Below are positions 3,886 to 61,966 of a stretch of DNA of 64,000 nucleotides, in pieces. The DNA comes from Ginglymostoma cirratum (taxonomy: Eukaryota). Made by a program: the position numbers and the translations under genes. Numbering within the stretch: the first letter of the stretch is position 1; the number at the start of each line of letters is the position of its first letter. The stretch is taken from NCBI GenBank assembly GCA_024137785.1, contig JAHRHZ010000013.1:12790707-12854706 (forward strand). Direction: 5' to 3'. Below the pieces are notes generated by a model, which worked only from the letters and a program-made list of their open reading frames with translations, had not been told where the DNA came from and ran no database searches.

Positions 3886-3968
3886 ACTGCAGTAATTCAG
3901 GCAGTTTCGTGTTGTAGAGATAGACTTGAGCCCCAACAACATGAAACTACCTAAATCACACATCAGCT
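3886..3968 (-). ncRNA. mir-196: miR-196 precursor hairpin (HoxA-cluster copy, between HoxA10 and HoxA9)
   Basis: Plus-strand 3932-3953 CCCAACAACATGAAACTACCTA is the reverse complement of mature miR-196-5p, UAGGUAGUUUCAUGUUGUUGGG. The complementary 3p arm CUACAACACGAAACUGCCUGA lies at ~3897-3917. The position 3' of Hox10 is canonical. Confidence 0.97.
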
Positions 3969-33879: not shown

Positions 33880-34124
33880 CTAGCTGTTAGTTTTCAGTTT
33901 AGTGAGAACTTTCTTTTCTTTGACTCGTCTGTTTTGAAACCAAATAGTGACTTGTCTCTCAGAGAGGTTTGTAGATGCAGATATCCTTCTTCGTTTGTCC
34001 TTGGTGATGAATTTATTCGTGGCATATTCCCGCTCAAGTTCTTTCAACTGCACTTTGGTGTATGGTACTCTTTTCTTCCTACCACGCCGAAAAGAGCTCG
34101 CATCCGAGGGATGCGAAACCACGT
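33880..34124 (-). CDS. hoxa13: HoxA13 exon 2 (homeodomain)
   Basis: (D)[80 protein letters not shown]. Acceptor TCACAG| at 34125/34124. Confidence 0.97.
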
Positions 34125-34514
34125 CTGTGAAGAGGAAAACACACCTCACCATCCATAGCATTTAGCAGTCGTCACCAAAAACAAACATAAAAACGGTAAC
34201 TGACACCGGAGTCAAGTTCAAGTGCCGTGGGGGATATTATCTCGACTATACCCTGTGCAATAAAAATTTAGCCGAAAATATAGTTTTGAAAATGCATGAG
34301 GCTTGAGAAGTGATAATGAAAAATCATAATGATATTAACTGCATGATACCATAGCGGTGCTAGTACTGGGGCATCACGCGTATGCCTTCTTAATCATAAC
34401 CCATTGAAAACTTAAGACCCGTTAGCCGTATGTATTTACACCTCACAATGCTTTGTTCCCTTCTCTTTAACAGTTTGGAGTGACATTGTAAGACTCGTGG
34501 TTATCTATACTTAC

Positions 34515-35160
34515 CTGGCAAGCTTGATTTCCAGAGGTGGGTGGCTTGAGGTTGCTCTTTCGAGCAGCAGACTTGCCCGTTCCACCCATTGGTAATTGCC
34601 CAGGGCTGGTAGCTCTCCATGGATAATAGTGTTTCATGTCTCGGTTCCCCCGGAGTGCTGATAGTGGGAACCACAGGTACGTCCAAATAGCTGGGCATGG
34701 GTTGGTATGGCCCCGCGTAACCTTGGTAGAAAGCGAACTCCTTAGCTCTGGAGGTGAATTCCTCGCCGGCGGACGTGTCCATATACTTGTCGGCAGGATA
34801 GCCAGACAAGGTAGAGGGCTGAGCACAGGACTTGATGCTGCTATGGTGGCTCATGCGGCAGGGATAGTAACTGCTCCCAAAGTATCCATAAGGAAGGGCG
34901 GCACTGGACGAAGTTTGAGCAGGACAAGGACTACACTGTTTGACAGGTTCAGAGATGCCAGAGGCTGGCACTTCACTCGACGAGTAGGCAGAGCTGGGAG
35001 CTAGGGATGCTGGATGGGTCATCAAATTCCTGCATTGATTTGCTGTGAAGTTCCCTCCCGAAAATCCATCCATGTTTTTATTAATTTCATCCAAACTGTT
35101 GTCGTAGACGAACATTACCGTGTCGATCCAGCGGGGATGAAGTATCACGGACGCTGTCAT
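34515..35160 (-). CDS. hoxa13: HoxA13 exon 1
   Basis: [22 protein letters not shown]...ANQCRNLM...[15 protein letters not shown]...[15 protein letters not shown]...[14 protein letters not shown]. Donor CCAG|GTAAGT at 34515/34514. Spliced CDS is 646+245=891 nt (296 aa). Confidence 0.97.
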
Positions 35161-40500: not shown

Positions 40501-41219
40501 ACCCAGAGATATTATGTTAAAAGGCTAATAACTTTGTTGTTCACATTTACTGATGCCAGTCCACCATTCGAAATAAAATAATGTATTTTTGTCAAATATA
40601 ATTAAAGGACAATGTACTGTTCTTCAGTTATTGTCACTGATATATTTGACTTATTGGTACACATCTGTCAAGGTGTTTCTTATTGGTGTCACTGGCTAAC
40701 ACTTTCGACTGTACCACCTTCACTAAGCACAATAGGTGTGCACATTTATGTTATTACAAAATAAAATTGTATGAACATTTAAGTAAGTCAGGTGCATTGC
40801 AACAACTGTTCATGAAACTGCTGCAACAGACTTATCATCAGCTTAAAATGAACGTAGTAGTGAGAATGCTTTTGTGAAACAATAGAAAACGCAACCATTT
40901 TTAGTAGAGCTATTCTAATATATTCTGACAATGATCAACTAAAACTATTCAAACTACATGAAATCTTGATATAGACAATTACGAATTTAGACCATGGCTT
41001 ATTAGCCGTTCCATTCAAAATGCGCCTCTCATTTAAAATGATTCAAACAATGTTAATTTCCTTCAAAAGAAGACTTACCTCGTTCCTGCTTTAAATCTAA
41101 GCGCATTGTCACTTCCTCATTTTGACCTAATTAATAAACATTTATCAAAAAAAAATCACACATCGAGATATTTTAATTGTAAGGGTCCAACTTTAGTACT
41201 GAAGCCCACAACTAAATTA

Positions 41220-41290
41220 TTTATCCTAATTTGCTGGCGGCGATTGAGCCTTATTGGTTCGTGATGCTGATATCGAAACCAGATTTGTAC
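41220..41290 (-). pseudogene. hoxa14: HoxA14 pseudogene, last exon (3' part of the split homeobox)
   Basis: After acceptor TTACTCTTGATAG| (41291/41290) it reads VQIWFRYQHHEPIRLNRRQQ, a decayed helix 3 (compare VKIWFQNQRQKEKK). An intron at Q|VKIWF is characteristic of Hox14 genes. Confidence 0.8.
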
Positions 41291-41393
41291 CTATCAAGAG
41301 TAAATGCTGTCGAGTGAGGTCTCAAGAAAACAAAGCTCATTTGATTTTAAGTCCGCCTGGAATACTTCTCATTTTGAATCTTCTAATATTTAT

Positions 41394-41540
41394 CTGTTCC
41401 TCTGATTCCTCAAGTTTTTTTAAAGTAATTTTTTCGCTAATGTTACATTGCAATCGTTTGATAGCAGATTTCCTGGAAAGCACAATCGAGTTGTGCAGTC
41501 TGGGCTTTGCGGTGATGGATTCTTTTCTTCTCCTGTGTAT
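41394..41540 (-). pseudogene. hoxa14: HoxA14 pseudogene, middle exon (5' part of the homeobox)
   Basis: From 41535 it reads QEKKRIHHRKAQTAQLDCAFQEICYQTIAM* (helix 1 pattern KKR....K.Q.A.L..AF.E). After a frameshift it reads NISEKITLKKLEESEEQ (compare NIS.KLGLTERQ), followed by ATAAAT, a mutated GT donor. In-frame stop at 41445-41443. Confidence 0.75.
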
Positions 41541-43649
41541 ACTGGGCTCGTGGGTGGGCAGAAAAGGGTGAATGAACACTCTGGGCTCCAAACGAATAAT
41601 TTCACCTTATTCGATTTCATTACTTTTATTATTATGTTTTTATTTGTTACCTCCGACTTTAAAGTGTATGTAAGAACCGTTCATCTTTTTAACTAAATAT
41701 ATGTAAAGTTCCATACTGACTTTTTCCGGGATGACAAAGCCCAATGCATACAGATAAAGATTTCCAGTACACATATGAATGCTCAGATGTCAGCTTTGAA
41801 GTAACTTGAATTTACGATCTCAAACCACCAACATTCCATAAACAACTGCTACCTCAAACTCTATATATGGTTTGAAATTCATGTAAGACGTGTATCTTTT
41901 CAAGTTACAGTAATAAACGCACGCAAGAAGATGCAATCATTATGCGAAACCATGTATGCATTCTGTGTTAAAATGACGAATGCCAACTTTCACAGTTTGA
42001 GTGTATAAAAACTTCATTGGTTTGATGACATTCAAATCAAGGCCAACTAGAAAACAAGAAAAACGATATTATTTCACTGTGATCTAAATGGTGTCCGCAC
42101 TGCGTGAGCGCAGCTCTTTCTTACATTTAGCAGGTAAAATGTCAAAACTAAAACATCGGTTAGTTTCTGTTAACGCATTGTAAATGCTTACAATTTTTAG
42201 ACGTTACTTACAATTTCATAATCCTTAACAAGATATATTTTATATATGTTTTATTTATTTTGTTTTAACGGCATATCTTTTGCGTTGGCACTATCTTCAA
42301 TCACAGTCTAATCTCTATTACATAGCTCGCTTTGCGCCAAATGCTAAGTCAGATATTTCATATTAAAATATGACCGCATACATATAGTTTGAGAATCCGG
42401 ACGTTAGAACTCCAAACCAAAGTGTCTTGGCAGTAATCACTACGAACTATTTTCATTTTTCATTCCTAATATTTGATTGTTTGTTATTACCATACAGATA
42501 AGTAAAATACAATTTGCTAGAAGGTATTACAATAAATACTGGTGCCATGTTCCCTCGATACCTTTCGATTTTGCATCACTAAATATATGTTAATTAAGAT
42601 GTATCTTGCACCTTGTTAAATAATTAATCTTCGGAGAACAACGTCTTGTTTAGGTTTAATGAATGGGCCATTGTATTATTTAAGATGTACTTCAACACGC
42701 AACTGCGAAATGTATTTCTATACGAATATCATTCGGTTAAAGTCAATTCACCGGGTACTTAGGAACAATTTTCACCATGACACTGGATATTTAAACAAAC
42801 TAATTCTCTATGTCAGGCTTCGGCTCTCACTATAAACATAACGAAATAAACATCTGCACATTTTCGTTGACAACCGCCTCTGAAAATCTTCAATGACTTT
42901 TATAAGTTTCAGTGATGGAAGTAGCATAAAAGGATAACCGGTTTAATTTCTCGTTTTCTAGGTTGCAAGCGAAATGTTTCCCGAAAAGTAACAAATGTCT
43001 CATCACCCACCCCAATGAACTGTTTAAAATTATGTCGTATATTAAATCATAAAATGAAAATCTGTTAATATCGTTTTGGGCACTTGAGTGGAGGATAGCA
43101 TCAACATAAAGTTTTACTGTCGCTGTTAGGCTGAGACGTTTCTTCTTGTGAATTTATGATACCCGAAATGCAACACACTGACAATATTATACCACACACG
43201 ATCTTAGACATGAACGGGGTACTTAGTTGTTTCAGTGAATCAAGCAGAGACTGCAATATTCAGCAGATGATTAAAATGAAGTGTTCCACACCGAAAATGG
43301 ACTTAATATCAGGCAGGACAGAGCAAAAAGTAATTTAATAAGTATTCAATGTGACAAAAGATAAATGAGAACTAAAGCAAAGAGAAGGCACAGACAAGTA
43401 TAATTTGACCTAGCCATTTTATTGATGCGGAGTTATTTAAGTACATAAACCTGCTCTGTGAATATTTCTGCAAAATAGCACAGGATTCATCTTATTTTGT
43501 CGTTTCAGTCAAATATCTATTTAGCAAACATTTCTAAATGAAACGTAATATGATAATACGCCCATTGCCCAATGTTATTAAACTGATTAGAAATTGATGC
43601 CAGTCACTATAATTTGTTCTGTTTTTAGCCACTTAATGAGGGAGGGTTA

Positions 43650-44090: not shown

Positions 44091-47038
44091 GACTTTCAAG
44101 AATATCATTTTTCTTAGTTTTGTCTCGAAAAATTACAGAGGCTTTGGTTCTGATTTGGATATATCTAGGTTAACAGCTTCTATGTACAGAACGCAATCTT
44201 TCGTCATGCAGCAAAAAAGACACAAACATTCCTGTCACAAGACATATACTTACGCACTTACGCAATGGATCATTCTGTTACAATGAGTGTGTTTAAATAG
44301 CAAGGTAAAGCAGTAAAGACGCCTCCGGTTAATCTTCAAGCTGTTCGAGTCAAGGACACAGAGGCGGTAACCGCATTAACTTTGCAAGATACAAAGGGTG
44401 ATCCAAGATCAGAAGTGCTAACTTGCATGGAAATCCAGACGCACATTTGCCTTTGAACAGAATTGTGCAGTTCACCTAACGTGGGTATAACCGTCTATGT
44501 TGGAGCAGTGTATATGAAATATGGTTGGACAAATGGATCTGATCCAGCTAATTCAGCACTGAGACATAGGAAGTTTGAGATTTATTGGTCGTTACAATGG
44601 GCAGTGCACCTCGGCTTTCAACAAAGATACTTACATTAGACTTTTGAACAAATATTTAGTCTCTAAGTCATAAAGTGCTTCGTGCCGACTGAATGTGGTG
44701 TCCTTGGCTTCCAAGACTAGTTTACACTTGCTTAGTTATTCCCTCTCCTTGCTGTGCTTTTCATTAACATTGTCTGCTCGGCTGCCCTGGTGAGTCCGTC
44801 TCTTCAAACCAATCCCCAATCTTTCAGTAGCACGTTTATGTGAGATGGTGGACCTGGCGCTAATTTCGATTGTGGCCTTCAGCTTTATTTCCGTTGAACT
44901 GCAGTGAGAAAGCACAACCATCGCCCACTGTGTGTGACTACAGCGTGATTTAATTCAGCCTTCAGGCTTCGTTTTAATTAATCTTAGTAAAGCAAATAAT
45001 TGCCGAAGTTTTCAAGGAGAGGCATTGGGCTAATCAACAATTTCTGTCACCAACAACTAGGGCTTGAATACATGCTTGCAGAATTTATCCATGATTAGTG
45101 CTGCTGTTTTGCAAGTCTTGGAAATTCGGAGACAATTTGAAAGATTATTTTGCCGGAATTTAGATAGCGCCTTGAACTATTTATTCTTTTCTTGGCGACA
45201 TTTTTGTTTGATCAAAACAGTGATGTCCCGTGTATGTTATATATTATTATATATATTATACATTTGAAATGATGTGTACGTAGGAGTGAGAAGGGAGAAC
45301 AATCCACGCTGAAGTGAAATAGGGATCAGTACCGGCGGGACAGATTGCAGTTTTTGCTACTGTTGGTTTCTGATCGCATCGATCACGCTTTGCAAAATGC
45401 CGATGTCGTCAACTTTTTGTGAGACGATAGGGAATGGTTCTGTCGAATAGAAATTCGAAACATATCAGCGAAAACATGGATGCACGGCCAAACGTCCTCG
45501 CAGACGATTGGCTGCAAAGCAATCGACCATGTCAGGAAGGTGTTTTACTGCCACTCAGTGTGCCATGAACAATTAAGAGCAAGGTACCCAATGCTGAGAT
45601 TATTGATCCTTTCATCATTGCTGATACCTCTTTACAGTCAATAGTGAGGCACAACACTCCTACATTTTCGTTTTGTTTGATGTGTTGCTCCTTACCAATT
45701 CTAATTCGCCAGTGTTTTCTCTGCTCACAAGTAAGTTGCAACAAGATGTGTGCTGGTCACTGAATGATCATTTCATGCATTTATTTGAATAGCTTATATG
45801 CGTTGCATTCACATTTCCGAGATTTTATTAATGCCATCATTTCAGGTTACGCTCGTAAAATCTTAAAACGAATGGAATTTTCAGTTCAAACGTGTGGTTA
45901 CTTCCACATTGCCATGCACCCCAGGAAGTCAAAAATTTCTTGAGTGACTGTGTTACCATTACAAGCTATAAAAACAAAGCACTAAAAGCTATGAATCATT
46001 GTGCAGATTAATGTCAGTATATAGAGTAAATGAAACAGGAGCATTTCAGTTTTGTATTCAATCATTGTGGAAATATTAAAGTTATATATTAATTAGTTAT
46101 ACTTGTTAAATAGTCACACATCGCAGTGTCCTATTGACTTCACTATATGCACTGTAAAAAAAATCCACTTATACCAAGTGGAAGCACATATTTCTATTTG
46201 TTAGAAATCTCATTTATATCCTGAACTTTATGTCTTTATAAAAATGCTGCTATGTGAAGCACCGACCCTCATTAACAGTTTTCAGTTGACTGAATGGTGG
46301 TTATCATTAAAATTACTTTTTTTTGACAATTCAGCAGTCTACCTGGTAGATTTTGCGAGCCATGCAAATTTGAATAAGCATACTTTAATTGATTTATACA
46401 GAGATGAAAGTCTGTTTTTAAAATAAAAATAATTTCCTTTAACAATGGAGAATTTTAGGCACTTAAGTCATTTCCACGCGCATCTTGTCCGAGAATTATA
46501 ACAAATTATTTTAGTAGGAACTTGCATTAATGCCTGGACGCCTCTCAAATTGAACTGCAGCCCAAAAATGTCGTCGATCAATTCAGAACCGACCTTGCGA
46601 CTGTTCGCAGTCCCCTGAAATTCTAATTTAGCTTCTTAGAGGTGAAATTAAATAGCCTCAATTGAAGTCCGGTTGGTTCCCTTAAGAAACCAGACAGCGC
46701 GTTACACACTTTGATCTTCATTCGCTGAATATGTTACGTGGATTATTTAAGGGATTCCACTTTAGAAAATAATAACAATTAGGGATGTGTCAATATGATG
46801 CACATTTCCAATAATCTTGCAGTGATAACTCGCAATTAAGCCAATATAAAAAACCTTAAGCTTAACGTGTTCGTTTCTATTATAGCGCTGTGCAACAACT
46901 CCAAAATATACATATTCAATTCTCTTTGGTGACGATAAAGGCAACTTCTCTGATGAAAACGGTTTAAGTGGCATGAGGAAGCAGTGTAAAAACGGGGCAA
47001 CTGGGGTTGGTTTTCCTGATTGTTCAGTAACTCAGATC

Positions 47039-48579: not shown

Positions 48580-48886
48580 CATAGAATAGAATCCCTACTG
48601 TGTGGGAACAGGCCCTTCAGCCCAACAAGTCCACACTGACCCTCAGAGCATCTCACCCAGATCCATCCCCCTATAACCCACCTAATCCACACACCCCTGA
48701 ACACGGTGGGCAGTTTAGCACAGCCAATCCACCTAGCCTGCACATCTTTGGACTGTGGGAGGAAACTCATTCAGACATGGGGAGAATGTGCAAACTCCAC
48801 ACAGGCATTCACCAGAGATTGGAATGGAACCTGGGTCTCTGGCACTGTGAGGCAGCAGCACCAACTGCTGAGCCACCATGCCACCC
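48580..48886 (-). mobile_element. tRNA-derived V-SINE (HE1-like elasmobranch SINE)
   Basis: Minus-strand head GGTGGCATGGTGGCTCAG...GACCCAGGTTCCATTCC (A/B boxes), V-domain TGTGTGGAGTTTGCACATTCTCCCC...GTTTCCTCCCACAGTCCAAAGATGTGCAGG, and CR1-type tail TTGGGCTGAAGGGCCTGTT...GATTCTATTCTATG. Confidence 0.85.
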
Positions 48887-48889
48887 TTT

Positions 48890-49105
48890 CTGAGACAAAT
48901 TCAGCAGGTCTGGTAGCATGTGCAGAGAGAGAAACAAAGTTAACATTTCAGGTCTCGGGATCTGAAGAAGGGTCTTCTGAAGAAGTCTCTCTAGACTTGA
49001 TAAGTAAACTTTGTCTTCTTTCTCCTCAGATGATGCAAGACCTGCTGAGTTTTCCAGCAATTTTTGATTTTGCTTCAGATTTTCAACACCCACAGTTTTT
49101 TGTTT
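48890..49105. mobile_element. Decayed palindromic non-autonomous element (same family as 61740-61966)
   Basis: TCAGCAGGTCTGGTAGCAT...GTTAACATTTC is inverted to ...GATGCAAGACCTGCTGAGTTTTCCAGCAA, with central CTGAAGAAGGGTC. Its left end abuts the SINE. Confidence 0.65.
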
Positions 49106-50176
49106 TTCTTGAAAGTATATTTTGCCTGGAACCAACATTGCAAGGGAGCCCAGTGCACTCAAGTGTGAGATCAGAACCTGGTTACTTAACCCTGCTGGTA
49201 TTTCTGCCTTTCTGTGCATACTAAAATTTTATCATATTCATGCAATGTAACAGTATAAATTCCTCCTTTGGTATATGCAGACCACTTAACTAATGCTCAG
49301 CTAATCATGTACACTCAATCCAGGAAGAGTACAATTGGACCAGATGCAGGTATACACAAACAATCTAATGGACAAAGTTTTGGAAGACCATTTGGGAGAC
49401 TTCCAACTTGATGCCCAAGTAATGTCACGTAAAATAATATCAGGACTGTAGTTTATGAATCACTGGTGTGATTTCTTTCTTGCAGCCGAAGAATATGGAG
49501 GCTCCAATTCTAATCCCTGGCTAATCTCATTTGTAAGATCCTGAAAGCAAATCTTGACAAATTACATTTCGTTATCTCAGACCTTTGATATTTTCAGATT
49601 GCATGGAACTAGAGAACTAATTGCCACCTAATGTCACAAAGTACATAAAGATAAAGTATTGAAGGACGATATAGCTAATACTCATTTAATAGCAGCAAGG
49701 CTGGTTTCAAACAGTCAGATACTTAAGACTTAATTCATCTTGTACAATACCAATTGGTTAAAAATTGGATGATCAAATAGGTATTATCTAACAATACAAA
49801 TGCATTCTTTTAAAGGGGAAAGCAGCAGGTTCCAATTCCAACAAATTTCATCCACAGTGTACTGAAAAAGTTTTAGAAATCTAAGATCCATTCAATCTGA
49901 CAAAATTAATAGGAGTGAACTATCATAGGTTCAGTGATCAGCCAGATGAGGGGACACAAGGGGCTTGGTTTTAAGTAAATTTAATGATTTGACTGAGAGA
50001 GGGCTTGGGGTAGGGTGGGACTGGTGAACATTACTTAGGAATCCAGGGCAAATCAAATAATGTCCCAGATCTTTGTGATTCACCTCAAAAGATTTCAGTT
50101 TAATGGCATATTCAAAAGACGATTACTTGCTCAAATTAATAGATTTTGTCAAAGGCACAGCCTTCTGACTCAAGAT

Positions 50177-51456
50177 TATCAAGCAGCACCTGCTGAGCAA
50201 CGACCTGCTCAGTGATGCCCAGTTTGGGTTCCGCCAGGGCTACTCAGCTCCTGACCTCATTACAGCCTTGGTACGAACATGGACAAAAGGGCTGAATTCA
50301 AGAGGTGAGGTGAGAGTGACAATCCTTGACATCAAGGCTGCATTCGACCGAATGTGCCATCAAGGAGCCCGATAGGTATCTGGGGGCAAACTCGCCGGTG
50401 GTTGTATTCATACCTGACACATAGGAAGATGGTTGTTGTTGTTGGAGGTCAATCATCTCAGCTCCAGGACATCTCTGCAAGAGTTCCTCAGGGTAGTGCC
50501 CTCTGCCCAACCATCTTCAGCTGCTTTATGACCTTCCTTCCATCATAAGGTTAGAAGTGGCGATGTTCGCCAATGATTGCATAATGTTCAGCACCATTTA
50601 TGTCTCCTCAAATACTGAAGCAGTCCATGTTCAAATGCAACAAGATCTGGACAATATCCAGACTTGAGCTGACAAGTGGCAAATAACATTTGTGCCACAC
50701 AAATGCCAGGCTATGACCATCATCAATGAGAGACAATCTAACCACCACCCCTTGACTTTCAATGGTGCTACCTTCACTGAATCATGCACTATCAACATCG
50801 TGGGTGTCATCATTGACCAGAAACGCAACTGGACTCATCACATAAACACAGTGGCTACAAGAGCAGGTCGGAAGCTAGGAATACTGTGGCAAGTAACTCA
50901 ACTCTGGGCTCCTCAAAGCCTGCCCACCATCTACAAGACACAAGTCAGGAGTGTGGCGGAATACTTCCCACTTGCCTGCATTAGTGCAGCCCCAACAACA
51001 CTCAAGAAGCTTGACACCATCGAGGACAAATCAGCCTGCTTGATTGGCACAACATCTACAAGCTTCAATCCTTTCCACTATCAATGCTCAGTAGCAGCAG
51101 AGTGTACTATCTACAAGATGCACTGCAGAAATTCACCAACAATCTCAGATAGCACCTTCCAAACCCACAACCACTTTCATTCAGAAGGACAAGGGCATCA
51201 GACATATGGGAACAGCACCACCTCCACGTTCCCCTCCAAGCCACTCACCATTCTGTCTTGGGAATATATCACCGTTCCTTCACTGTCGCTGGGTTAAAAT
51301 CCTGGAATTCCCTCCCTAATGGCATTGTGGGTCCACCTACAGCAGATGGACTGCGGCAGTTCAAGAAGGCAGCTCACCACCACCTTCTCAAGGGCAACTG
51401 GGGATGGGCAAGAATGCTGGCCAGCCAGCGATGCCCACATCCCACAAATGAATAGA
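50177..51456 (+). mobile_element. 5'-truncated CR1/L2-group non-LTR retrotransposon, disrupted RT ORF2
   Basis: IKQHLLSNDLLSDAQFGFRQGYSAPDL...LDIKAAFDR...VPQGSALCP..FS...MFANDC (FADD motif decayed)...IYKTQVRSVAEY...SWNSLP, with stops and frameshifts. The 3' tail ends ATCCCACAAATGAAT. Confidence 0.9.
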
Positions 51457-55765: not shown

Positions 55766-57384
55766 AGGATTTCTCCTCCTCCTAACAAGCTTCAAAATGT
55801 CCAAGACGTTAAAATTAGCTATCACAACCCCTCATAATAACTCTATGTTCAACAGGAGCACATTGTATCATTTACTGTCATTTATATAGAAAGTACATTC
55901 TGCACATCAGAGACTATTGTCCAGGAAACAATATAACACTTTTAATATGTGACGGAGCATAGATCCAGTATTTTCGAAAGAAGGAGGTACACATGGTGGA
56001 TGACTGTGAGGAAATCAGGGCTGGCCTGAATATCGGTGGTACTGCTTCATTGACAAGCTGTCTAAGAGAACAGGAATGGAAGTCTAAACATTTATATCTC
56101 TCCCACAGCTGACAATTTTACCAACAAGATTAGTGTTTTGTCCTACATACAAAATGATTTGCACTCACAATGCAGGAAATGATGCCTTCATGAAAGTTTG
56201 GGTGTTCTTAACTATGGTTTATGTCACACTAGATGGATCAAATAAAAGAATGTGTCCTCCAACGAAGTGTATACTTATTCACTCTGATATCAACAGATCG
56301 ATGGTTAATTTTCAGCCAGGTAGGAAGGACTTGGATTGCTGCCTTCACTCAGTCTGTGATTTCTCACCATGTAGCTTTCACTTTTGCTTTTACTGGAGCA
56401 GGGCTTTAGTTCTAAGTCTGAAACCTTTGATGCATTTTCAGCCAAACAAGCTCCAACCCTGCCACATCAAAGGGAACAATTCTGTCCAGATGTCTCCACC
56501 GTGCCATTGTAAGCAATTAGCTCACTTTTCTGCCATTTCTACAAGCTAGCTTTTAATGGTAATTTGGAACCCTTTAAATGCTGTTACCTAGGTAGATTTT
56601 ACACTTTTGAGCCACATCTATCAGCAGACAGACTCTCTTTACGCGTGTCTTTGCCTATTCAAATTAGGAGAAGGGAATCCCAGTGTAAAATTCTGGCAAC
56701 CATGGGTCTGCACAACTCTTTTGCCTTAGAAAATCATCTTTTTTAAATTAAAAACTGTTATAAAGTTAATTTGTAACTTTTGACACCAAAAATTTAAAAT
56801 AGGCATTTGCAGGAACCTTAAGCATTTTCTAAACTACAAACAGTTAATTATTCTGAGCACATTCACCCCCACAAATATAATTTGTTCGGTTTTTCTCACT
56901 ACATGTATCATTACATCTCTGCAGTCAGTCACATAATGGATAATTTTAACATTTCATTATTAAAGTATGCCTTCAGTCACCTGCTACCTATTCTCTCAAT
57001 CAACAAAGTTAAAGAGCACATTGCCTTTTTGCTGCAAAGATTGAGACCATTTGTTCAAATGCCCTTGCTACTTTCTATATTTCTTCAGCTATCAAGCCAA
57101 ATTTCACCTAAATTCTCCCTTCACCAGCCGTGAACCCACAAATTCTCTAATTTGTCTCCTATCTTCCCTCTTGCCGTCCCTGAGCATTCACAAACTGTCT
57201 TCAGCCTTTAACTTGTTTGACAACCTTCAATATCTCTCTTCAAATCTCCTAATGGGACTGTCATTGTCTTGATTACCTTTCTATCTCTCAAGTTGATTCA
57301 AGAGAATTACCTACAATGGTTTTCCTTCCTATTCCTGCATTAGTACAAGAGTCCACATTTAACCGTTTTCTATTTCTGATAGTG

Positions 57385-57715
57385 GGAGGTGATGCTCTAG
57401 CGGTATTATTGCTACATTACTAATCCAGAGATCCAAGTAACGTTCTGGGGACCCAGGTTCAAATCCTGCCATGGCAGATAGTGAAATTTGAACTCAATAA
57501 AAATCTGGAATTAGAAGACTAATAATGACCATTGGTTGATTGTCAGGAACAATTCATGTGAGTCACTAATGCCCTTTAGGGAAGAAAACTGCTATCCTTA
57601 CCTAGCCTGTCTTACATATGACTCCAGACCTACAGCTATGTGGTTCACTCTGTCCTCCGGGCAATAAATGTCGATCTAACCAGTAATACCCATATTCTGT
57701 GAATGAATATAAAGA
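57385..57715 (+). mobile_element. tRNA-derived SINE with a LINE-related tail
   Basis: B box GGTTCAAATCC at ~57457. Tail GGGCAATAAATG...CCAGTAATACCCATATTCTGTGAATGAAT resembles the 3' end of the LINE at 51400-51456. Confidence 0.75.
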
Positions 57716-58204
57716 AAAGTCCACCCACTGCCCTTCAGTGATGTCACCTGAAAACACAGTGTTTTATGACACTCAACTGTACTTCTCCATCAGTTCTCTC
57801 AATTGCTCTACTGTCTGACTTTTCGCACTAGTTGATTGATATCCAGTATTGGGTGAGAAGAAATTCCCTCTAATTTAGTTTGTAGAAGATCAAAACTATT
57901 GACTTTGGTCCCTCTCACAAATTCTGTCGCATCATTAATGACTCCATCCATTGAACTAGAAAGTGGCTAATGCTGAACCAAACTCCTCATAATCATGGTG
58001 TCCTTTTTTACACCAAGTTGAGATTCTTATCTGATATCCTCTCCAGTACCATATGTAACCATGCCTGTTGCCAACATGATTCAGTTCATCCTCTCCATTC
58101 CTTTCTTATAACCTCCAGGTTAGACCATTAAAATGTTATCCTGTGTAACTCTTAACTTACACTTCCATTTAAATTGAGCCCATTCACAACTGCTGCCCAT
58201 ATCT

Positions 58205-58775
58205 TTGCATGCCCACAAACCAACAACCAACCTGTGACAGCTACTGATGATTGTAAAGGATCCCATACCCACAACCAATAAAACTAACGTAGTATACAAA
58301 ATACCATGCAAGGATTGTGAGAAACATTAAATAGGCCAAATGGAAGAAAACTGACAAGAAGGATACACGAACACCAACTAGCCACCAAGAGACACAACCA
58401 GCTCTCACTGGTCTCAGTACACATGGACAAAGAAGGACACAAATTCAACTGGGGCAACACATCCATAATAGCACAAAACAAACAGACAGGCCAGGGAATT
58501 CCTGGAGGCCTGGCATTCCAACTGGAACTCTATCAACGAGCACATTGAACTGGATCCGAAATACAAACCACTGAAAAACAGAGCTGGAAGTGATGCCAAC
58601 CACCCCAGCAAACCGAGGCAAACTAATAACAAATGGGACAGATCACTAATGCTTCACCGGAGGTGCACTGATGATGTTACTTAGCACGGTGATGAAACGT
58701 CTGCACCCAAACACACTGGCTCGGCGAGCAAGTCTACAACCTCATTCACAACCAGAGCTACAAATCTTCTCAAAA
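58205..58775 (+). mobile_element. Penelope-like element 3' end: disrupted GIY-YIG endonuclease plus terminal repeat
   Basis: KDPIPTTNKTNVVYKIPCKDCEKH*IGQ / GRKLTRRIHEHQLA...HMDKEGHKFNW / AREFLEAWHS is the typical PLE GIY-YIG with CxxC, carrying a stop and frameshifts. Confidence 0.9.
58662..58707 (+). ncRNA. Minimal type I hammerhead ribozyme in the Penelope terminal repeat
   Basis: GGTGCA-CTGATGA-T-GTTAC(ttagcacg)GTGAT-GAAAC-GTC-TGCACC: stem I GGTGCA/TGCACC, conserved core boxes, palindromic ACGT stem III, GUC cleavage site at 58699-58701. Confidence 0.75.
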
Positions 58776-58779
58776 TATT

Positions 58780-59000
58780 TAATTAAAAGTCTGTCTATCT
58801 CAGCCTTGAATATACTTAATGCCCCAACCTCGGCAGTCCTCTATGGTAAAGAAATCCATGGATTAACTACCCACTGAAAGAAGAAATTCCTCCTCATCTC
58901 TGTCTTAAATGTGGGACTCCTAATTCTGAAATTATGCCCTCTAGCCCTAGAACCTCCCAAGAGGGAAACAACCTTTCCACAGCTACCCTTTCATGTCTAC
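58780..59000 (-). mobile_element. CR1-like LINE C-terminal fragment
   Basis: Reverse complement encodes a decayed ...FP...SR.RGHNFRI....F.TEMRRNFF.Q-type CR1 C-terminus. Confidence 0.7.
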
Positions 59001-59167
59001 TAAGAATATTGCATGTTTCATGCCATTTTCCAGTCCCCCATTATTCTTTCTCCAGTCTAATTCTCAAAAGGACCATGTGCACTTAGCTATTGTCTTCCTT
59101 TTTATATCTATTGCTGGCCATCTTGATGTTACTTGCACGTTTGCCCGCAAAGTTTATTTTCTCTTCT

Positions 59168-59332
59168 GGAGGTTTATGAAATCACAAGGGACATGGATAG
59201 GGCGAATAGCCAAAATCTTTTTCCCAGGGTGGGGGAGTCCATAACTGGAAGGCACACATTTAAGGTGAGAGGGGACAGATTTAAAAGGGACCTGAAAGTC
59301 AACATTTCCACACAGAGAGTGTTGCGTATGAC
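59168..59332 (+). mobile_element. CR1 LINE ORF2 C-terminal fragment (opposite orientation, nested)
   Basis: EVYEITRDMDRANSQNLFPRVGESITGRHTFKVRGDRFKRDLKVNISTQRVLRM resembles CR1 EVYKIM.G.DR....LFP.....TRGH..K......F.......F.QRVV. Confidence 0.8.
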
Positions 59333-59404
59333 TTTGACTCTGTAAATAAGGTTGCCTCTTATTCTTCCATATTCCAATAAGTGCTGGCTTAATTAATGCT
59401 ACTT

Positions 59405-59950
59405 CTCCTTATAAGACAGTCCCTCTAATGCTGGTATCAGGCTAGTGATCCTCCTCTAGACTGCTTGCAATGCCAATATATTTTTACTTAAACAAGGGGC
59501 CCAAAACTGTTTACAGAAATCCAGCTGTAGTCTGACTATTGTCTTGCATAGATTTAGCAAAACCTCCTCACTTTCATACTCCATCACCTTTAAAAAATGG
59601 CCAAAATTCCATTTGTCTTCCCTATTATCTGCTGAATTTGGATGTTAACTTTTTATGGTTCTTGGCAAAGACTTCCAAAACCCTCTGTTCTGTAGCTTTC
59701 TGCAGTCGATCTCCATGTAAATAATACTCAGCTCCTCTATTTGTCCTACTAAAGTGCATAACCTCATATTTTCCCGCATTATATTCCCTCTGCTAAGTTC
59801 TTGCCCACTCACTTAACCTGTCTAGATCCATTTGCATACTCTTTGTGTCTTCCTTGTCATTTACCACTCTGCTTATTTTGAGTCACCTGCAGACTTGGCT
59901 ATAGTACATTCAGTTCCCTCATCCAAGACATTAATGTGCGAGGTAAATAG
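59405..59950 (-). mobile_element. CR1-like LINE RT fragment (continuation of 58780-59000)
   Basis: Minus strand gives INVLDEGTECTIAKSAGD (decayed KFADD)...RPQL.FC.QFWAP...LQAV.RRITSLIP-like CR1 RT motifs. Confidence 0.75.
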
Positions 59951-60799
59951 TTCTGTTGGTCAGCACATACCTGGATAATTTTCCACCTTATATGAAGGGC
60001 ATAATAGAACGCTAGGCTGGAGCTGAGAAGTATGGAAGGAATAAACTAAAGACTTATATTTATATATATATTAATATATTGCAGTCATATCAAGGCGCGG
60101 GTTATGGTCACAATTGAGGTTGCAGAAGCTGCAATTGAGATCATGAGAGTACCATCTTCTGAGACTGTGTCTCACACTGAGGCCCAGGCAGCATCTGGCC
60201 CTACTCTTGTTCTGCTTATCTCTTGATCTCAGGATTTTCTTCTTCTCAAGAACAGTTAAAAATGTTGCCAGCAGGGCTACAGAAACACACTGGCTCTGGT
60301 TTTCTGAACTCCTACATCTCATTACCAGCTGGCTGAATATTTTCAGTTGGCAGTGGAGGGTGCAGGAGGAGACATGGTCTGATTACAATGGGTCATGACC
60401 AAAGATCATTAACCCAAATCACATAAAGATATATCAAAGTTTTAATTACAACATGCGTTCTTTTCAAAAGATTGCTGCCATAATTATGATGATGGTAGAT
60501 AAAAATTTAGTAGCTGGAGAGGAATTCTGGAACTTCACACCTGTACAGAGTCAAGGAAACTTCAAACATAATAAAAAAGAAAATGAGAGGCTGACTATTC
60601 AATCCTGTCTCAGCAGAAGGCCATCTCTTGTGGATATATTTCTGTTTTACCTTTCAGTGACACACGCAAAATTGGGGGAAAGAAGTGGGCTTCATATCCG
60701 GTCTATGTGTGCTAGTAGCCTGACACCCTAGTGTGTGGACCAATGTGCTGTGAAAGTCACAGCTTTAACAGCAACCATTAAAGAACTCTGTACTGCAGG

Positions 60800-61365: not shown

Positions 61366-61739
61366 AATTGAGGGTTAGTGTTCATGATTTGAACCCACAA
61401 AGTGAAGTGAATAAATTCTCACTTTGAATCCAATTTTGTTTTTAAAAAACCCACAAAAAGACTTTATTGATTTATTATGGGAGTGAGGTAAATGCTGGGA
61501 GGGTGGTGCCAAAATGAAACATTAGGCCAAGAAACTTCTGTGTTTTAACTGATGGAAGATAGGACATGTCCAGTTTAACTGCTGGAGGTACACCCAAAAA
61601 ACAATGGGATTTAATGAGACACATACACCCAACGAAGAGAATGGGAGCCATTCAAAAAGCATAGAAGACTAGAATATGAATCCCTGTAAAGGCACATGCA
61701 AGTTTGGGAATGACTTTAAACAAATTGTTGAGAATTAAA

Positions 61740-61966
61740 AACTGAAAGAAATGTGGATGCTGTGAATCAGGAACAAAAACAGAAGTTGCCGGAAAAGCTC
61801 AACAGGTCTGGCAGCATCTGTGAAGACAAAAATCAGAGTTAATGTTTCGGATCTGGTGACCCTTCCTCAGAACAATCACTGGACCCGAAATGTTAACTCT
61901 GACTTTTTCTTCACGGATGCTGCCAGACCTGCTGAGCTTTTTCAGCAACTTCTGTTTATTTGCTGA
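61740..61966. mobile_element. Palindromic non-autonomous element (inverted Penelope-type terminal repeats) inserted in the Gypsy element
   Basis: Arms of ~80 bp, AACAGAAGTTGCCGGAAAAGCTCAACAGGTCTGGCAGCATC...GGTGA and TCACTGGACCCGAAATGTTAACTCTG...CAGCAACTTCTGTT, separated by ~16 nt. Confidence 0.8.

Follow-up and report, generated by a model that had tools for sequence, protein, structure and literature searches.

A probable HoxA14 pseudogene with a split homeobox, 5' of HoxA13 in a shark HoxA cluster

Hox14 genes are described as having three exons and the helix-3 motif WFQNQR (PMC3509897), and their homeodomain carries a conserved split (PMC8423624). The homeobox intron responsible is reported to occupy one position common to Hox14, lamprey Hox13-beta and Abd-B, and to have been retained, among gnathostome Hox genes, by Hox14 only (PMC3707753). 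Coelacanth, lungfish and caecilians are reported to have an intact HoxA14, and turtles and crocodilians to keep pseudo-exons of it (PMC3038165, PMC7875771, PMC11600591), and the sterlet is described as having a hoxd14 pseudogene (PMC7269910). For cartilaginous fishes, the elephant shark (Callorhinchus milii) is reported to hold HoxA14 and HoxB14 pseudogenes beside an intact HoxD14 (PMC3707753), and group-14 pseudogenes are noted in several species, possibly as the outcome of independent losses (PMC3509897). Mulley et al. give the Hoxa14 gene as absent in skate and horn shark, and the part of their paper that treats it mentions no remnant (PMC2746220). HoxA14 pseudogenes have already been reported in cartilaginous fishes, and the remnant described here adds one more case. 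Powers and Amemiya (2004) reportedly described a HoxA14 pseudogene in horn shark, at the same cluster position in a shark, which is probably the direct orthologue of ours; their paper is cited for group-14 pseudogenes of chondrichthyans in PMC3509897, which gives neither cluster nor species.

We read the present locus as, very probably, a unitary pseudogene of HoxA14 decaying in place. It resembles the elephant shark case as a dead group-14 gene in a cartilaginous fish retaining HoxD14 (PMC3707753), the difference being that the present remnant is in a shark. With the intact HoxA14 described from coelacanth, lungfish and caecilians it shares its place at the HoxA 5' end, a split homeobox and Gln52; those genes, however, have three exons and WFQNQR, whereas the remnant has lost its frame, its donor and an intact helix 3, and searches recovered no exon 1. 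The Hoxa14 pseudo-exons of turtles and crocodilians and the hoxd14 pseudogenes of bowfin, gar and sterlet are, as described, also decaying in place in slowly evolving genomes, in independent lineages. The bowfin hoxd14 is reported to be expressed and to keep both WFQNQR and its splice junction (PMC8423624), whereas the remnant keeps neither intact.

The window, by which we mean the whole 64,000-nt stretch of DNA that was analysed, is recognisable by its gene content as the 5' portion of a HoxA cluster from a chondrichthyan, most likely a carpet shark. Six-frame translation yields intact homeoboxes for HoxA10, HoxA11 and HoxA13, each on the minus strand; the window has no other intact helix-3 motif of a homeobox. 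Exon 1 of HoxA10 (8339-7581, minus) matches the named HoxA10 of Stegostoma tigrinum (zebra shark) at 252 of 253 residues (next match 66%); exon 1 of HoxA13 has 94% identity to the named HoxA13 of Mobula birostris (next match 78%), and the HoxA13 homeodomain is recognised by Pfam with an E value of 1.3e-20. A mir-196 precursor (3889-3962, minus, 78.6 bits) lies where a HoxA cluster should have it, on the downstream side of HoxA10, and is the only Rfam match over the window, the remnant locus having no family. Evx1 would fall outside the window end. The sole mismatch of HoxA10 exon 1 to the zebra shark protein, at position 38, would suit a close relative or a variant.

A preliminary description of this DNA had proposed that two minus-strand segments about 6 kb upstream of HoxA13 rebuild a homeodomain around a 103-nt intron. 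We searched both strands of the window, with the three real homeoboxes masked, using a spliced, frameshift-aware aligner that was written after the candidate had been seen and a profile of 15 posterior homeodomains (3 from the window, 7 named HoxA13, 5 divergent and unnamed, none of them Hox14). The proposed locus is the top match of the masked 64-kb window, scoring 42.9 against 25.5 for the next, and its boundaries proved exact to the base, with the AT..TAG interval at 41393-41291 and VQIWFRYQ reading from 41290, which is 6130 nt from the HoxA13 ATG. The features referred to below are:

6001, 19761 and 34083, minus strand: homeoboxes of HoxA10, HoxA11 and HoxA13, respectively, from helix-3/homeodomain matches
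33880..35160, minus strand: HoxA13, the intact neighbour gene, from its exon 1 match and Pfam homeodomain
41536..41580, minus strand: tentative intron 1 acceptor region, a pyrimidine-rich tract with an AG at 41548-41547 and other AGs nearby
41394..41535, minus strand: first homeobox exon, decayed, covering homeodomain residues 1-44, from the spliced profile alignment
41443..41445, minus strand: TAA stop, met first, after 30 codons, in the frame that carries residues 1-27
41291..41393, minus strand: fossil phase-0 intron of 103 nt between residues 44 and 45, from the best split and splice motifs
41156..41290, minus strand: last exon remnant, reading VQIWFRYQH..., with 44 open codons to a TGA

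The first homeobox exon remnant retains K3, K4, R5, K10, Q12, L16, F20, Y25, T27 and Q44. It is read in two frames. The first opens at 41535 with QEKKR, covers homeodomain residues 1-27 and is identical to the HoxA10 of the window at 10 of these 27 residues (including R5, Q12, L16, F20, Y25 and T27). The second, offset by one base, includes NIS and runs to the Gln codon at 41394 (NIS..EEQ). The fossil intron begins ATAAAT, ends TAG and has a branch-like CTCAC with its A at -25, and the last exon remnant then supplies residues 45-60 (41290-41243), in which W48 and F49 are kept. If the AG at 41548-41547 served as the acceptor, intron 1 would tentatively be of phase 1, as in HoxA13. A shifted minus-strand frame (41606-41340), open for 89 codons, runs into the fossil intron without an early ATG and is probably incidental.

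From T27 to column 36 there are 34 nt where 24 are expected, a net gain of 10 nt in helix 2. This bears out the frameshift of the preliminary description and refines its position: we place it after 41455, because agreement of the first frame with HoxA10 extends to Y25 and T27, an agreement that also led us to drop a frameshift right after residue 22. Two indels, a short deletion and a longer insertion, appear more likely than a single 10-nt insertion, since NIS fits columns 33-35 (score +6.3) and the single insertion scores poorly (columns 28-35 all negative, best -7.5). The TAA that had been counted as a lesion in its own right is present, but it shares bases with the AAC codon that opens NIS (41444-41436) and so is probably a by-product of the frameshift. 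At the donor, CAG/ATAAAT (boundary at the slash) agrees with 7 of 9 consensus positions and wants the G of GT; agreement at this level occurs at 60 of 12831 nearby positions, and the intron-side part alone (a 4/6 match) at 6.5% of random positions. The AT of the claimed GT>AT change is directly seen, whereas its descent from GT is our inference. No replacement GT donor above 6/9 consensus occurs in 41600-41291. Helix 3 bears out the change of WFQN to WFRY as Q50R and N51Y, to which R53H is added, each a change of one base.

Read as WFRYQH, helix 3 stands three base changes from WFQNQR and four from WFQNRR. Its codon 52, overlooked in the preliminary description, is CAG (Gln), where all 15 comparator homeodomains have Arg. 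We give it modest weight as a trace of the diagnostic Hox14 Gln, a single residue that is one G>A step from an Arg codon. An intact Hox14 gene was rejected on the strength of these three changes from WFQNQR, the net +10 nt, the stop at 41445, and an AT donor with no good GT replacement.

Losing N51 and R53, both in helix 3, would abolish DNA binding by a homeodomain. The remnant would yield no working protein, since intron 2 is unspliceable as a GT-AG intron, the stop comes after 30 codons and before helix 3, and N51 and R53 are lost. Invariant homeodomain residues survive at 9 of 23 positions, and first and second codon positions have changed at 14 of 42 sites over 21 invariant columns, for a Jukes-Cantor (JC) distance of 0.44 (95% CI 0.25-0.78) that assumes the ancestor carried the invariant residues and is uncalibrated by a neutral rate. 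With decay at approximately 0.44 substitutions per site, the loss of HoxA14 is old, a statement about distance that does not translate into an age in years.

Exon-1 queries from Hox13, HoxA11 and HoxA10, none of them Hox14, found nothing significant as an exon 1 remnant. Further upstream on the minus strand, an ATG at 45092 and a GT donor at 44634 enclose 458 nt (45092-44635) whose size and place would suit exon 1. The donor agrees with 8 of 9 consensus positions, the best within 5.9 kb upstream, and the ATG frame has 5 stops, as few as are found in 8.6% of comparable frames. As evidence, the candidate exon-1 end at 44634 was rejected, its similarity to Hox13 exon-1 ends scoring 15.7, below the shuffle mean of 22.3.

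Of the other explanations, the one that survives best would add to the HoxA14-pseudogene reading: that the HoxA14-derived sequence is kept as a transcribed pseudogene or a regulatory element. The precedent is the bowfin hoxd14 pseudogene, reported as still transcribed, spliced and regionally expressed, but its split junction is described as preserved (PMC8423624) and the donor here is dead. CpG observed/expected ratios of 0.75-1.24 across 41.2-43.2 kb would suit such a role, but equally high values occur elsewhere in 33-48 kb. As decay looks heavy, the Hox13, HoxA11 and HoxA10 queries recovered no exon 1 and Rfam has no match at the locus, we consider a retained role of this kind unlikely.

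The remnant lies 5' of HoxA13, on the Hox (minus) strand and within the HoxA cluster. When the intron position was freed, the best of 55 placements was after residue 44 (score 42.9), followed by 34.4 for the next and 34.7 with no intron. We take the homeobox intron position of Hox14 to be 44/45, and on that assumption the intron sits as in Hox14, as had been proposed. Dlx genes are also reported to have an intron at 44/45 (PMC3199776), so the position by itself does not single out Hox14; the K3-K4-R5 arm and the place of the remnant, however, are those of a posterior Hox gene. Being a posterior homeobox that is split, carries Gln52 and lies immediately 5' of HoxA13, the remnant is best read as HoxA14, and the identification first made in the preliminary description gains support from the same features. 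It is position, intron and a single residue that carry the name; among the best 150 of 9987 representatives listed, and among 3 short proteins, there was no Hox14 with which to compare the remnant. In the HoxA cluster of the ancestral gnathostome, HoxA14 would have been the Hox gene at the extreme 5' end.

One alternative is that HoxA13, or some other posterior Hox gene, was duplicated in tandem long ago and the copy decayed, its interruption being either an ancestral intron or a chance 103-nt insertion. Lamprey Hox13-beta is reported to have the same intron, but gnathostome Hox13 genes are described as lacking it (both PMC3707753), and against a chance insertion the 103-nt interval has donor-like and acceptor-like ends. 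Q52 is reachable from an Arg codon in one step and the comparison set is without Hox14, both of which leave room for a duplicate. In single-paralogue profiles, however, the remnant score is reached by 0 of 100 shuffles with HoxA11, 2 of 100 with HoxA10 and 24 of 100 with HoxA13, so that the HoxA13-only profile does no better than shuffles. At the nucleotide level, the last exon aligns significantly with HoxA10 and HoxA11 (1 and 0 of 1000 shuffles) and not with the HoxA13 homeobox (59 of 1000); the first homeobox exon gives no significant alignment with any of the three (384, 817 and 112 of 1000, the last being HoxA13). Since HoxA13 is the paralogue that fits the remnant least well, a decayed copy of that gene is disfavoured, and we regard a tandem duplicate of any kind as very improbable beside the HoxA14 pseudogene.

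Dinucleotide shuffles of the whole window on two strands never reached 42.9 (0/60 and 0/300; Gumbel p 0.006), and when only the minus strand upstream of HoxA13 was shuffled, it was reached once in 500 (Gumbel p 0.0009). The remnant was the best match in 11 of 11 profile or penalty settings, with 0-2 of 100 shuffles reaching its score in 10 of them; the eleventh used the HoxA13-only profile. Residues 1-21 alone are the top upstream match (reached by 1 of 100 shuffles), whereas residues 45-60, the last exon, do not on their own rise above shuffles of 28.8 kb (42 and 27 of 100), so that the signal resides in the combination of exons. Aligned codons lie at most one base from a residue of the window's HoxA10, HoxA11 or HoxA13 in 40 of 52 cases overall and, for the last exon, in 15 of 16. 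The mean codon distance to paralogue residues is 0.85 against 1.45 +/- 0.10 for codon-order shuffles (0 of 10000), a comparison in which the blocks were chosen after inspection. Searches with tblastn using the three homeodomains of the window gave E values of 0.74-2.7 at the remnant, not significant, and Pfam assigned a family to none of three remnant translations. A degraded homeobox of posterior Hox type, with K3-K4-R5, K10, Q12, L16, F20, W48 and F49 kept, nevertheless stands above chance. Resemblance by accident in AT-rich intergenic DNA is very improbable: the negative tblastn and Pfam results, a whole-window Gumbel p of only 0.006 and the commonness of lysine- and arginine-like codons in A-rich DNA would allow it, but none of the 360 whole-window shuffles reaches the score, and strand, place and intron position are all as expected, only the split having been imposed in the first scan and later freed. 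A repeat origin was rejected: the locus holds no tandem repeat, and its best match elsewhere in the window, at E 0.11, is not significant.

HoxA14 may have become dispensable while cartilaginous fishes retained HoxD14, whose retention is reported (PMC3707753, PMC3509897). The remnant may still be legible because chondrichthyan HoxA clusters, as described by Mulley et al., change slowly and hold few repeats (PMC2746220). As an unannotated fossil it supports the presence of HoxA14 in the jawed-vertebrate ancestor, with lineages keeping different group-14 copies, a view already in print. A full-text literature search, whose coverage excluded key primary papers, found no description of a HoxA14 remnant in a carpet shark, which does not imply absence from print. 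What is added are base-level lesions from one more shark lineage, which, set against other cartilaginous fish genomes, can serve to count and date the loss; the suggestion in the preliminary description that the lesions could date it is reasonable, given other genomes.

One such comparison concerns the AT donor and the helix-2 indel. That both are common to sharks, rays and chimaeras, with a single death of HoxA14 before the holocephalan-elasmobranch split, is a doubtful proposition, although a decay of 0.44 (0.25-0.78) substitutions per site is compatible with a single early loss. The split is put at no less than 375 Myr, that is at least 375 Myr ago (PMC2746220). Were the loss single and early, the remnant would be among the oldest readable vertebrate pseudogenes, its survival might reflect a regulatory or non-coding role like that of bowfin hoxd14, and the independent group-14 losses suggested for cartilaginous fishes (PMC3509897) would be contradicted.

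Long frames at 48600-51300, at the edge of the repeat-poor cluster, resemble what we take to be LINE retrotransposon fragments, and the segment 48901-49107 has two diverged copies near 61737-61964. A strong negative GC skew (-0.16 and -0.21) marks 56000-60000, unlike the remaining window.
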